DNA of 64,000 nt from an uncultured virus (IMG/VR IMGVR_UViG_3300035454_002149) (Duplodnaviria; Heunggongvirae; Uroviricota; Caudoviricetes). Both the position numbers and the translations under genes were made by a program. The stretch lies in the IMG/VR virus record IMGVR_UViG_3300035454_002149, one strand, 5' to 3'. Shown piece by piece: positions 14,296-29,517 of this stretch (position 1 is its first letter; each line of letters begins with the position of its first letter). A model generated the notes under the pieces. It made no database searches, had not been told where the DNA came from, and saw only the letters and a program-made list of their open reading frames with translations.

Positions 14296-15384
14296 TTACT
14301 CCTGATAGAACTCCATGTTACGGCGCAGTCTCTCATCCTTGGGGTCTAGATCTATGGCTTTTTGCCCCCATTCTTGGGCCTGTGCTTTTAGACCCAAATA
14401 ATAAGCGGCCAGCGCACCAAGATCGTAGGGTTCGCTGCCCCAGCACGCACCGTCACTGATGTAGGTCATGCCACGCTGTGTTATGGCCAAGCATTTGTGT
14501 ATGGCCCAAAACACAGTAGCCCAATCTCGAGCGCGGTTAGCACAACGGGCTAGTTCCAACCAAGGTTCTCGGCTCCAGGGCCATTCTTGCGTGGCTTTCA
14601 CTGCCCAGATCATGGCATCGTCGGTCTTGCCCATGTTTAAAAAACAGCGAGAGATATAACGCAGGCTAGAACATCTCTCTTCTCGCCATTGTGCGTTGGG
14701 CAAAGATAAATGCCTTTGAAATTCGTCGATCGCATCCTGCCAGCGAGATTTGAACATGAGTTCGCGACCGTAGTAATGGCTCATGCGATCGTTGCTGGGG
14801 TCTTCGTCTACTGCCATCTTCAGCAGCGGTAGATATTGTCCACGACTCTTGGTCACATCGGCACGATGATGCAACACGAGATCAGGAACATTCTTTCGTA
14901 TCTCTTGACCTGTGCCTTCCCAGTAAAGTGTTTCGTGGCAAGGATGTCGCCACCGATAACCTTGCCTATGATGTATCTTGTCCGCAAAGAATCTCGTGGC
15001 TGGCGTACCATCCGCGTTCCAATTCCAGATATAATCGTAGCTGACACGTGTCATGGTGCCGTTGGATTCCTGCCAGGCACGATCCAATGCCTCCACCCAT
15101 CCGGGCTGTAGATACTCGTCAAGATCGATACTGAGACAGACATCTATATCAGCTGGCACCAGACTCAAGGCCGTGTTTCGTGGAACATCAAAACGCCATG
15201 GACGTTGCACGATATCATAGACCACTGCTCCGAGTTCTCGAAGTCGTTCAGCGGTGCCGTCTGTGCTGCCTGTATCGCACACTAAGACGAGATCGGCTCC
15301 CTGACAATGTGCCATGAACGTATCAACATGTTTGATCTCATTGAGTGAGATAGCATACACACAGGTCTTTACACGATCAACCAT
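14296..15384 (-). CDS. GT2-family glycosyltransferase with TPR repeats
   Basis: VYAISLNE, DTGSTDGT, WRFDVPRN, SIDLDE and HPCHE motifs; helical TPR C-terminus. Confidence 0.88.
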   Translation of the reverse strand: MVDRVKTCVYAISLNEIKHVDTFMAHCQGADLVLVCDTGSTDGTAERLRELGAVVYDIVQRPWRFDVPRNTALSLVPADIDVCLSIDLDEYLQPGWVEALDRAWQESNGTMTRVSYDYIWNWNADGTPATRFFADKIHHRQGYRWRHPCHETLYWEGTGQEIRKNVPDLVLHHRADVTKSRGQYLPLLKMAVDEDPSNDRMSHYYGRELMFKSRWQDAIDEFQRHLSLPNAQWREERCSSLRYISRCFLNMGKTDDAMIWAVKATQEWPWSREPWLELARCANRARDWATVFWAIHKCLAITQRGMTYISDGACWGSEPYDLGALAAYYLGLKAQAQEWGQKAIDLDPKDERLRRNMEFYQE

Positions 15385-17188
15385 GCGCAGCCTCCTGATA
15401 GAACGCTAGATTTTTCTGCAATCTTGCGTCCGTGGGTAGCATATCTAACGCCTGCTGTCCATACTGCAAGGCCTGTCGATACAGACCAATATTGTAAGCG
15501 GCCAAAGCAGCAATATCGTAAGGCCGGTCCGACCATGCTCTGGGATCTTGGGTGAATCCATTGCGACGTTCTGTGACCGATAGGCACCGGCGTGCGGCTA
15601 GATAACACTCTTCCCAATCACGTTGATTATAACAGAACTCTGCGTAAGCAAACCATGATTCTCGCTCGTTGCTGTGATCTGTTGAGATGCGATACCAGCG
15701 ACGGGCAGAGTCCGGATCGCCTTGAGAAGCATAACCACCCGCGATATTCCGAGCGATGTAACTCTGTATCACTGCACCTTCGTCGCAAGAATCATAGCTT
15801 TTTCTCCGGATATGCAAAGCATCGCCGTATCGTTGCTGCGATTGATATTCGTTGGCCAGGAAGTAATAGGTGCGCCAATGATGATCGCCTTCTGCGACTT
15901 TCTTTTCCAGGAGATCGAGATATCCACGTCGATCCTTGCCAGTATCTTGCTGTTCATCAAGATAAACATCCGACAACCATATGGCGTGCTCGTCACGATG
16001 CCATTTCAGTGTCTCATGCACTGCACCCGTCCAGTGACATCCGTGACGGGCGTGTATCTTTGAATGCCACTGCCATGGGTTGCTGTTGTTGCGATATCTA
16101 TGGTTGGCCGTGGTAGTCTGTGCAGTCCAATTGCGTTCTATGTGTTGGCGCCAACCCGGTAACAATGCTTCGTCAAGATCTTGCCATATGCAAACATCAA
16201 TGTCAGCCGGCAAGAGATTCAGTGCTGTGCCACGTGCTACATCAAAACGCCAAGGCATCACTGATATGGGCACCACAGTGACTCCATGCTTGATCAGTTC
16301 CTTCACAGTTGAGTCAGTGCTGCCTGTGTCACAGACCAAGCGGAGATCTGCTTCCTGGTTACTGGCCGCCCATCGTTCTACATGCTGTGACTCATTTTTA
16401 CAGATAGTATAAACAGCGATGCGTAACGGACGATGCTGGAACTCTCGACAGAACCCAGTCAGTAGATTGTCTTGGGTGCGCAAATATTCGTCTGACAATG
16501 ACGCCAGTCGATCCTTCCAGATGGTCTCCCACATGTGCAAGGTGTAGGAATCTTGCAACTTTTCACGATCTTCTGCGCGATTTTCAAAAACATACGGATC
16601 ATCGAACCCAAAAGGCGTAAACGCAGTACGTGGCAACAATGTCAATGTATCTGGAATTTGTTCAGCTAACTCTGCTGGTAAAACCACGGCATGGTGTGCC
16701 CAGACATCAGCTCGGAAATTGCTGGGTATAGCTGCCAGCCAGGCCTGCAAAAACTCCGATCCGGGCTGTGCCATGATCACGGCGTTGCTGACGGATTTGA
16801 TCTCGCCATCGTCTGTGGTGCTTTCGATGGCCAACACACAATCATGCTCCTGTAGATCCGTCAAAGGGCGTGTCATGATAACATCGGTGTCAAGGTAGAT
16901 GCCGCCCAACTGTATAAGTTTTTGCAGTCGCACTATGTCGCTCTGATACTGAGGATATTCTAGACGGACGCCTTGATATTCCTGCATGGCATCTGTCTGT
17001 ACCAATGTCACATAGGGTTTTATGTTTTCCCAATGCGGATTGTTTTCGGGTTCCTGATCATAGTAAAAATAGATCGCATCGGGCCTCTGTACTTCATAAG
17101 CAGATCTCACTGCGAGATAGTTGAGATAGCTAAACTCTCTAGAGCCCGGGCCAAAAAAATAAATGAAATGTACGACGTTGGGTATCAC
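15377..17188 (-). CDS. Double glycosyltransferase: GT32/DxD domain + GT2 domain + TPR
   Basis: IPNVVHF...SDIVRL...GGIYLDTD (GT32/OCH1-like), then VYTICKNE, DTGSTD, WRFDVAR, QDLDE, VHE (GT2), then TPR; GTG start overlaps the upstream TGA. Confidence 0.85.
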   Translation of the reverse strand: MIPNVVHFIYFFGPGSREFSYLNYLAVRSAYEVQRPDAIYFYYDQEPENNPHWENIKPYVTLVQTDAMQEYQGVRLEYPQYQSDIVRLQKLIQLGGIYLDTDVIMTRPLTDLQEHDCVLAIESTTDDGEIKSVSNAVIMAQPGSEFLQAWLAAIPSNFRADVWAHHAVVLPAELAEQIPDTLTLLPRTAFTPFGFDDPYVFENRAEDREKLQDSYTLHMWETIWKDRLASLSDEYLRTQDNLLTGFCREFQHRPLRIAVYTICKNESQHVERWAASNQEADLRLVCDTGSTDSTVKELIKHGVTVVPISVMPWRFDVARGTALNLLPADIDVCIWQDLDEALLPGWRQHIERNWTAQTTTANHRYRNNSNPWQWHSKIHARHGCHWTGAVHETLKWHRDEHAIWLSDVYLDEQQDTGKDRRGYLDLLEKKVAEGDHHWRTYYFLANEYQSQQRYGDALHIRRKSYDSCDEGAVIQSYIARNIAGGYASQGDPDSARRWYRISTDHSNERESWFAYAEFCYNQRDWEECYLAARRCLSVTERRNGFTQDPRAWSDRPYDIAALAAYNIGLYRQALQYGQQALDMLPTDARLQKNLAFYQEAAHG

Positions 17189-29086: not shown

Positions 29087-29517
29087 TATGCTGTTACTCC
29101 GCCGAGATCAACGCAGTTACCGCCGTCCCATTCAAATCCAATCTTGGCTGGCACAGGACCACAGATATAGCTCTGGTCAGGGTCGCCGCCGTCCAATAGA
29201 TATAAGCCAGTAAAACTGCCCCCGCCGCTGATGCTGACCGTGACCGCATTGCCTATGTTGGTCGCTACGACACCGTCGCCTGTGAAATCCAAGCTGGTCA
29301 GCGTGGAAGTTAGTAAATTTCCTTGATAAGAGACCGCAACATTGGCCGCACCACCGCCACCACCACCGCTGACGATGGTACCGCCTGGTGTAGAGCCGTC
29401 GCTGACACGTATGGTATTTGTGAGTGGATCGTACCAAAGGCGGCCTTCCTGTCCAACGAAAGTATTGCCAGTGGGTACGCCGTTGTTTCTACTGGTAAAA
29501 AACTCTTGGATCGCCAT
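29086..29517 (-). CDS. Short fibre-associated protein
   Basis: [12 protein letters not shown]...[11 protein letters not shown] resembles fibre anchor modules; [13 protein letters not shown] overlap with the collagen gene. Confidence 0.7.

Follow-up and report, generated by a model that had tools for sequence, protein, structure and literature searches.

The window analysed here spans the opening 64 kb of a record of an uncultured virus (IMGVR_UViG_3300035454_002149; 75,431 bases in all) and carries on its minus strand, at 29871-14296, a block of genes for a Thr-rich collagen, associated fibre-cassette proteins and three putative glycan-modifying enzymes, i.e., a methyltransferase (MT), a glycosyltransferase (GT) of GT32 type fused to a GT2-tetratricopeptide-repeat (TPR) enzyme, and a second GT2-TPR enzyme. 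All genes named in a sequence-only reading of this DNA are present, co-oriented and tightly packed; its layout holds, except for two likely gene starts, which we place at 17188 for the GT32+GT2-TPR gene (GTGA overlap) and at 24392 for the Cys-cluster gene (ATGA overlap). The features of the block are as follows (lengths in amino acids, aa).

29876..29881, minus strand: TAAATA, putative T4-type late promoter core heading the block (motif match)
29524..29871, minus strand: 115-aa hypothetical protein, first gene of the putative late unit (no Pfam or PHROG family)
29086..29517, minus strand: 143-aa Gly-rich protein (phrog_36222, unknown function, E 6e-8)
24389..29086, minus strand: 1565-aa Gly-X-Thr collagen that starts with an Mtd_N domain and is interrupted by small globular inserts, predicted to be a virion fibre and the glycan acceptor (Pfam Collagen, 506 bits, and Mtd_N)
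24033..24392, minus strand: Cys-cluster protein, CxxCxxCC-like (language-model resemblance to PF03692, score 0.90)
23326..24030, minus strand: 234-aa Thr-rich protein, fibre-cassette gene (gene neighbourhood)
22371..23312, minus strand: tandem C1q/TNF-fold (BclA_C-like) protein, 313 aa (AlphaFold and Foldseek)
21996..22367, minus strand: 123-aa protein, always encoded beside the C1q gene (gene neighbourhood)
17823..21989, minus strand: 1388-aa SBBP beta-propeller protein (SBBP beta-propeller repeat match)
17794..17822, minus strand: sigma70-like site TTGACC-N17-TATAAT, putative promoter, 6 nt upstream of the methyltransferase ATG
17185..17787, minus strand: class I S-adenosylmethionine (SAM) methyltransferase, predicted to cap a glycan (Methyltransf_24)
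15377..17188, minus strand: GT32-like domain fused to GT2-TPR paralogue B, with DxD-type motifs intact in both domains (Gly_transf_sug/Gb3_synth and phrog_13126)
14296..15384, minus strand: GT2-TPR paralogue A with a SunS/ThuS-like fold (GT2 and TPR, phrog_13126, E 1e-104)

The collagen, described beforehand as Thr-rich and of Gly-Pro-Thr (GPT) type, matches Pfam Collagen and contains 396 Gly-X-Y triplets in 16 runs, with Thr at Y in 292 triplets and GPT in 178. The arrangement G-x-T-G occurs 293 times, compared with 28 expected from shuffling. The runs hold 87 Asp/Glu and no Lys or Arg, and therefore no Lys-Asp/Glu salt bridges can form; little or no Pro stands at Y, which leaves no room for stabilisation of the hydroxyproline type. 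Since the Mtd_N start and one insert match tail-fibre PHROG families, the collagen is predicted to be a virion fibre. Pfam matches for the whole chain are only Collagen and Mtd_N, the C-terminal 105 aa have no PHROG match, and the BclA_C-like (C1q-fold) domains are encoded by a separate gene. A spread of the G-x-T-G sequon over other virion proteins was also considered and rejected, as the 75-kb contig shows no excess outside the collagen.

The assignment of the enzymes by the sequence-only reading was borne out by matches to Methyltransf_24, Gly_transf_sug/Gb3_synth and phrog_13126. Paralogue A, of about 360 aa, consists of an N-terminal GT-A/GT2 domain and C-terminal TPRs; it is 36.5% identical to paralogue B, and the two come from different clades, members of which again sit in tandem in further myophage and WhiB-bearing loci. 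The motifs DTGSTD, D-x-D-E and H-E, which by analogy with GT-A enzymes we take to be metal-binding and catalytic-region motifs, are invariant in 41 sequences, including both paralogues of the window. No curated family was found for the enzymes in an NCBIfam search, and the GT32 domain gave a weak PDB sequence match (E 0.002).

The proposed structural comparison of the GT2-TPR enzyme with SunS used an AlphaFold model (predicted local distance difference test 94). In Foldseek its six best matches were all SunS or ThuS entries (E 2e-16 to 2e-13), and structural comparison gave Z scores of 23.3, 22.1 and 21.9 for SunS/ThuS as against 17.7 for the next entry, the top match covering 271 residues at a root-mean-square deviation (rmsd) of 2.7. 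A profile search likewise returned ThuS, GmaR and SunS among many generic TPR matches. Across the GT-A and TPR parts together, no structure matches better than SunS and ThuS (PDB 7MSN, 7MSP, 7MSK), with Z 22-23 for alignments of 271-308 residues and an identity of 13-15%. They act on peptides or proteins, and the modelled fold of the phage enzyme is that of peptide O/S-glycosyltransferases, a shared fold being no proof of the acceptor. Glycocin glycosyltransferases sit in a bacteriocin cluster with an exporter and oxidoreductases; in contrast, no bacteriocin precursor or transporter context was seen here, the phage neighbours being fibre, terminase and tail genes, and the predicted phage acceptor is a 1565-aa structural protein.

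The GT32, methyltransferase and GT2-TPR domains are fused in varying order in related loci (numbered L), as GT32-MT-GT2 (L011, L003), MT-GT2-GT32 (L128), MT-GT32-GT2 (L018), MT-GT2 (L035, L073) and GT2-GT32 (L060). Such recurring fusions support one pathway for these domains, and do not indicate the order of steps. In L003 a radical SAM domain is additionally fused onto the GT32-MT-GT2-TPR chain; a radical SAM gene lies in the window at 12200-13976. Genes for 2-oxoglutarate-Fe(II) oxygenases recur near GT2-TPR genes in other loci, and L006 (OQ999401.1, 9538-16080) carries two collagens and a gene annotated as tryptophan halogenase, followed by GT2-TPR. GT2-TPR matches with in-frame TAG were seen in L496 (1504-2649, 1 stop) and L561 (837-1850, 13 stops), and L561 may use a recoded TAG.

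The association between enzyme and collagen was examined in viral sequences from both directions. The forward sample comprised the best 80 of 589 viral GT2-TPR loci, with near-duplicates kept. A collagen was visible in 43 of these 80 and in 22 of the 30 loci with at least 9 kb upstream, and Thr+Ser at Y was at least 0.4 in 41 of the 43; in many relatives the neighbouring gene is itself a GPT collagen. An exact pattern of 10 protein letters was present in 25 of the 80 loci, against an estimated 9700 stretches in the collection of 2.9 million contigs, and the enzyme motifs themselves occur in at least about 810 viral stretches (estimate). The neighbourhoods included WhiB-bearing, portal/protease, ejection-protein and sheath-bearing types, and because these types differ, several unrelated phage groups are involved. 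Among 39 GT loci or records without a nearby collagen, six had an above-cut-off collagen elsewhere on the record and most others were short fragments. Upstream of the same GT2-TPR pair, L005 (854-3781) has a collagen-like run of GYS/GIS type without proline and with 95% Ser+Thr at Y.

For the reverse direction, loci were seeded by three collagen patterns (GPT, GPK and GPQ), of which 79, 80 and 80 were kept with flanks, 60, 41 and 46 short loci were dropped and overlaps were merged; the enzyme was counted at 100 bits or more. It was found in 16/70 GPT, 0/70 GPK and 2/69 GPQ locus groups, both GPQ cases being Thr-rich. Of the 205 groups with a scorable collagen, 54 reach 20% GPT or more and 18 of these hold the enzyme, as against none of the 151 below that level; by charge, Lys+Arg at Y is below 3% in 81 groups, 18 of which hold it, as against none of the 124 above. 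Searches of whole records, for which longer records were chosen and which covered 45 of 50 GPT loci, added three GPT cases (19/70); they gave no enzyme in 50 GPK records, 24 of them at least 90% complete, and no strong match in 48 GPQ records. As the GPK loci may differ in habitat, we added a tail-region control, in which a small, unrelated gene of the tail region served to collect 79 loci; its query came from copies near GT genes, and one such locus was left out. Here the enzyme was found in 3 of 7 Thr/Ser-collagen groups, exactly the three dominated by GPT, and in 0 of 69 others (Fisher p 5e-4). The co-occurrence proposed as a check by the sequence-only reading thus holds: a distribution of the enzymes independent of the collagen was looked for in the pattern-seeded groups, in their sorting by composition and in the tail-region control, and was not seen.

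The same pairing extends to bacteria. Among 200 scored genomes from the class of a Lachnospiraceae bin, 49 had enzyme matches, six of them at E 1e-118 or better (at least 397 bits). In five of the six close Clostridia loci the enzyme gene directly adjoins a GPT collagen, whose Thr+Ser content is only 24% in one case, and 9 of 18 more distant bacterial loci have a Thr-rich collagen in the same stretch. The homologue in L586, 41% identical, follows a collagen with a BclA_C-like end (below cut-off), and its neighbours were read by eye as chromosomal. In the tree the Clostridia homologues form a nested clade (40-43% identity) and a sister clade (about 21%). A scan of genome contigs found few cellular copies; the Clostridia copies that it missed were found by the genome search.

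The tandem C1q/BclA-like protein at 22371-23312 is well modelled as two C1q-like jelly-roll domains (AlphaFold confidence 90), whose top Foldseek matches are C1q domains and single-chain C1q trimers (E 4e-12; template modelling score 0.76-0.83 and rmsd 2.3-3 to single C1q domains). Its homologues match C1q and, below cut-off, BclA_C, and homologue P0216 lies above the Pfam cut-off for C1q, so that this assignment of the sequence-only reading holds, as does that of the beta-propeller protein at 17823-21989 by its SBBP repeat match. The Cys-cluster protein and four homologues have no Pfam match, and its sole likeness is the language-model neighbour PF03692 (CxxCxxCC, 0.90); its gene belongs to the fibre cassette in some relatives and is not tied to the glycosyltransferases. 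In a survey of 39 loci carrying the C1q protein, all of them fragments, GT2-TPR genes were present in four (two being near-duplicates) and the cassette stood without these enzymes in 35; in a fifth locus the last genes are a methyltransferase-like one and a GT32 one. The collagens visible in the GT2-TPR-bearing loci are of GPT type (Thr+Ser 0.77-0.87, Lys/Arg at most 2%), and GT2-TPR is absent where the collagen is of GFT/GYT type (12-20% Lys/Arg) or Ser type, or where there is none. We therefore rejected the whole block as one obligate system, the C1q, 123-aa and propeller genes being found with GFT/GYT, Ser-type or no collagen and without GT2-TPR. The block is a fibre cassette plus a separable enzyme cassette that follows collagen type. 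In L617-L625, L645 and L647 the collagens have an aromatic X (GFT, GYT) mixed with 12-20% Lys/Arg at Y, and close by in L619/L620, on the other strand, are genes for an FkbM methyltransferase and for a GT of a different kind.

The promoter-like sites of the block fall into two types. TAAATA, which also stands 23-35 nt ahead of the portal, neck, sheath, tube and fibre genes, occurs at 29881 and next on the minus strand at 14298, with none between, and thus the block reads as one putative late unit; the unit probably begins one gene upstream of the Gly-rich protein, at 29871. Behind the site at 14298 a gap (13977-14295, minus strand) apparently holds one or two small open reading frames of less than 80 aa. 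The enzyme trio appears, from sequence, to be served by a sigma70-like promoter of its own. The TTGACC-17-TATAAT site ranks best among 14 sites in 17 kb, where shuffling predicts 14.7 at a loose threshold, and it is one of two sites with at most one mismatch in 75 kb. Comparable sites lie ahead of the enzyme genes in L001 and L008 and a weaker one in L013; L012 has TAAATA instead, and a clear sigma70-like site is absent from the 7 other enzyme-gene regions examined. The site ends 6 nt from the ATG with no ribosome-binding site visible (17787-17822), and would give a leaderless mRNA.

From these data we consider it likely that the collagen Thr residues are the acceptor of a predicted phage-encoded O-glycosylation and that the glycan would be extended and methylated. 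The proposal that the phage O-glycosylates its own collagen is supported by the three co-occurrence tests, in which the independence that would refute it was not seen, by the SunS/ThuS-type fold, and by the Clostridia homologues beside BclA-like GPT collagens; glycan extension, methylation and a role in helix stability are what we infer beyond it. The enzyme trio would be made from its own sigma70-like promoter, presumably before or alongside the late fibre genes, and this site equally fits a supply of enzyme ahead of its substrate. The TPRs would then hold the Gly-Pro-Thr chain and the GT-A domain transfer a hexose or N-acetylhexosamine from a nucleoside diphosphate sugar to the Y-position hydroxyl, a chemistry drawn from the analogy with SgtA and SunS, in which the fold is the observed part. 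GT32 would add a second sugar and the methyltransferase cap it; to this extension and capping activity, suggested by the recurring fusions, we give about an even chance. Finally, the triple helix would be held together by the sugar instead of by hydroxyproline and Lys-Asp/Glu salt bridges, and the sugar may also coat the fibre. In the published material available, (GPT)10 forms a triple helix only if galactosylated (PMC11923368, citing Bann 2000), and charged collagens of E. coli prophages are stable unglycosylated (PMC3368898). We tentatively suggest, as an idea that is somewhat more doubtful than not, that phage collagens follow two mutually exclusive designs, one salt-bridged by Lys-Asp/Glu and needing no enzyme, and the other of Gly-Pro-Thr type, which many unrelated phages would mature by an SgtA-like cassette of their own; here the GT2-TPR pair, GT32 and methyltransferase would build a methyl-capped oligosaccharide on hundreds of Thr before folding, as a required step of fibre assembly.

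The closest known parallel is in C. difficile, where SgtA adds beta-O-GlcNAc (N-acetylglucosamine) to Thr or Ser of BclA3 GPT peptides, as described in the available text of PMC7157674. By fold and context, the phage arrangement is likely a version of SgtA/BclA3 in which the enzyme occurs as two paralogues and further enzymes are predicted to extend and cap the glycan. Both systems have an enzyme of about 360 aa with a GT-A domain and C-terminal TPRs and a GPT collagen in the locus, SgtA takes Thr and Ser (PMC7157674), and the phage family occurs with both collagen types. In contrast to BclA3, a spore protein, the substrate is phage-encoded and a predicted virion fibre (Mtd_N), and the phage has two diverged paralogues plus GT32 and a methyltransferase, whereas the part of PMC7157674 available reports no extending enzyme found for BclA3. 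A more distant collagen-flanked GT2-TPR of Clostridia is only 21% identical to the phage enzyme. Mimivirus L230, a hydroxylase/glucosyltransferase, is likewise a viral enzyme that glycosylates collagen-like proteins of the same virus, with methylated sugars in the virion glycans, but according to the accessible part of PMC4691112 it acts on hydroxylysine; the phage collagen has 0 Lys in 396 triplets, the enzyme family differs, and a giant virus is compared with a bacteriophage. The enzymes annotated as beta-1,4-glycosyltransferase in PaBG, Lu11 and Y3-like jumbo phages share PHROG 13126 with those of the window (E 1e-104); they are 24-34% identical, form a separate branch and are not next to a collagen, the collagens there having 16-25% Y=Thr, and the literature searched describes no acceptor for them. 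In S-SRM01 the homologue is weak and no collagen is matched by Pfam. DSL-LC01 was rejected as a cultured test case because it is metagenome-assembled, and the paper on it makes no mention of collagen.

Several observations weigh against glycosylation of the collagen by these enzymes. No collagen is seen in 37 of the 80 GT loci, which are mostly short fragments but include a 111-kb, 61%-complete record, and about three quarters of the GPT loci lack the enzyme family. Seven GPT records at least 90% complete have no enzyme nearby (one has it further off, two have weak GT2 matches and four have nothing); GPT collagens without the family may use other or host enzymes, or none. Collagens rich in Thr/Ser but of GAT, GSS or GFT type mostly lack the enzyme as well, the fibre cassette occurs without GT2-TPR, and three C1q loci containing GPT (L616, L623/624 and L626; fragments) also have none. 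The loci are phylogenetically non-independent, so the p-values overstate. In the window the enzymes lie 7-9 kb from the collagen gene, whereas sgtA adjoins bclA3. In cultured PaBG, Lu11, Y3 and Sen-NF a long distance separates the remote homologues from the collagens, in which Y=Thr reaches only 16-25%. The own sigma70-like promoter would also suit an early, non-virion job on host or DNA.

An unlikely alternative is a broad action of the enzymes on virion proteins such as capsid, tail and other Thr-rich fibres, with the collagen as one acceptor or a mere neighbour. In close relatives (L002, L008, L013-L015) the GT pair adjoins neck and sheath genes and no collagen is visible, in records that are only 2-9% complete, and in Y3-type phages a distant homologue is kept in the head-gene region. 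Glycosylation of capsids and tail tubes is described for mycobacteriophages in the available texts of PMC12619734 and PMC10877033, citing Freeman 2023; particle coating by phage glycosyltransferases is thus shown there and predicted here, and their sites are C-termini of capsid and tail-tube proteins, against up to about 290 candidate Thr per collagen chain. A general enzyme would not be expected to show specificity for GPT-rich, Lys/Arg-free collagens, nor does it fit the confinement of the GxTG excess to the collagen. Improbable to a slightly greater degree is modification of the host surface (lipopolysaccharide (LPS), capsule, pili, flagella) to exclude other phages, the enzymes merely sharing a variable host-recognition island with the collagen, as the accessible text of PMC7029224 interprets pelagimyophage islands. 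The sigma70-like promoter, the other sugar genes on the contig (15-3306, 61543-62691) and the membership of GT32 in a polysaccharide-type family agree with it, but the tail-region control finds the enzyme only with GPT collagens, the fold is of the peptide-acceptor SunS type and not of a carbohydrate-acceptor type, and chromosomal Clostridia homologues show the same pairing outside phage islands. Glycosylation of phage DNA against restriction, the default annotation for phage glycosyltransferases in the available parts of PMC10202952 and PMC10611076, would suit early-type expression; we consider it very improbable in view of the substrate-binding TPR architecture, the position in a structural block and the linkage to collagen composition, and no base-hydroxylating partner is among the Pfam/PHROG matches of the block.

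The wider contig, read here as that of a jumbo phage, has a T4-like myophage gene set by PHROG matches (terminase 10627-12198, tail tubes, sheath 36357-39731, neck, UvsX and ssb). The cultured phages with the nearest terminases, PA5oct/Paride (54%), Phosso and Atu_ph07, all belong to the jumbo phages. A second sugar cluster at 15-3306 (plus strand) and 3303-4073 (minus strand) could be the source of a donor sugar. In it an RfaE-like nucleotidyltransferase carries a fused mannose-6-phosphate-isomerase-like cupin, and the other members are phrog_2518, a phrog_1962 glycosyltransferase and a methyltransferase. At 61543-62691 (plus strand), surrounded by fibre genes and with TAAATA ahead at 61533, lies a TPR and GT9-like protein, which is another candidate virion-protein glycosyltransferase. 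Between the enzyme block and the terminase (12200-13976, minus strand), behind TAAATA at 14002, are a methyltransferase and a twitch-domain radical SAM protein. Two long Thr/Gly/Asn-rich fibres with a GNVTGGN-like repeat (50369-57689, minus strand) are depleted in G-x-x-G spacing; sequon avoidance as the reason for their G-x-T-G depletion was rejected, because every G-x-x-G spacing is depleted there.

Thr-rich collagen triplets are over-represented in viruses, with glycosylation as the assumed reason, and the available text of PMC11923368 leaves unknown whether it takes place on unfolded or folded chains and names no viral enzyme for it. Searches of open-access papers returned none that links phage GT2-TPR enzymes to phage collagens. 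The locus offers candidate enzymes and a substrate for the glycosylation of viral collagen Thr, which, if true, would provide soluble enzymes for hydroxyproline-free collagen and glycoprotein engineering. The default annotation of the enzyme family as modifying DNA or host LPS would then be replaced, and virion glycosylation would take in several unrelated types of phage in addition to mycobacteriophages and giant viruses.

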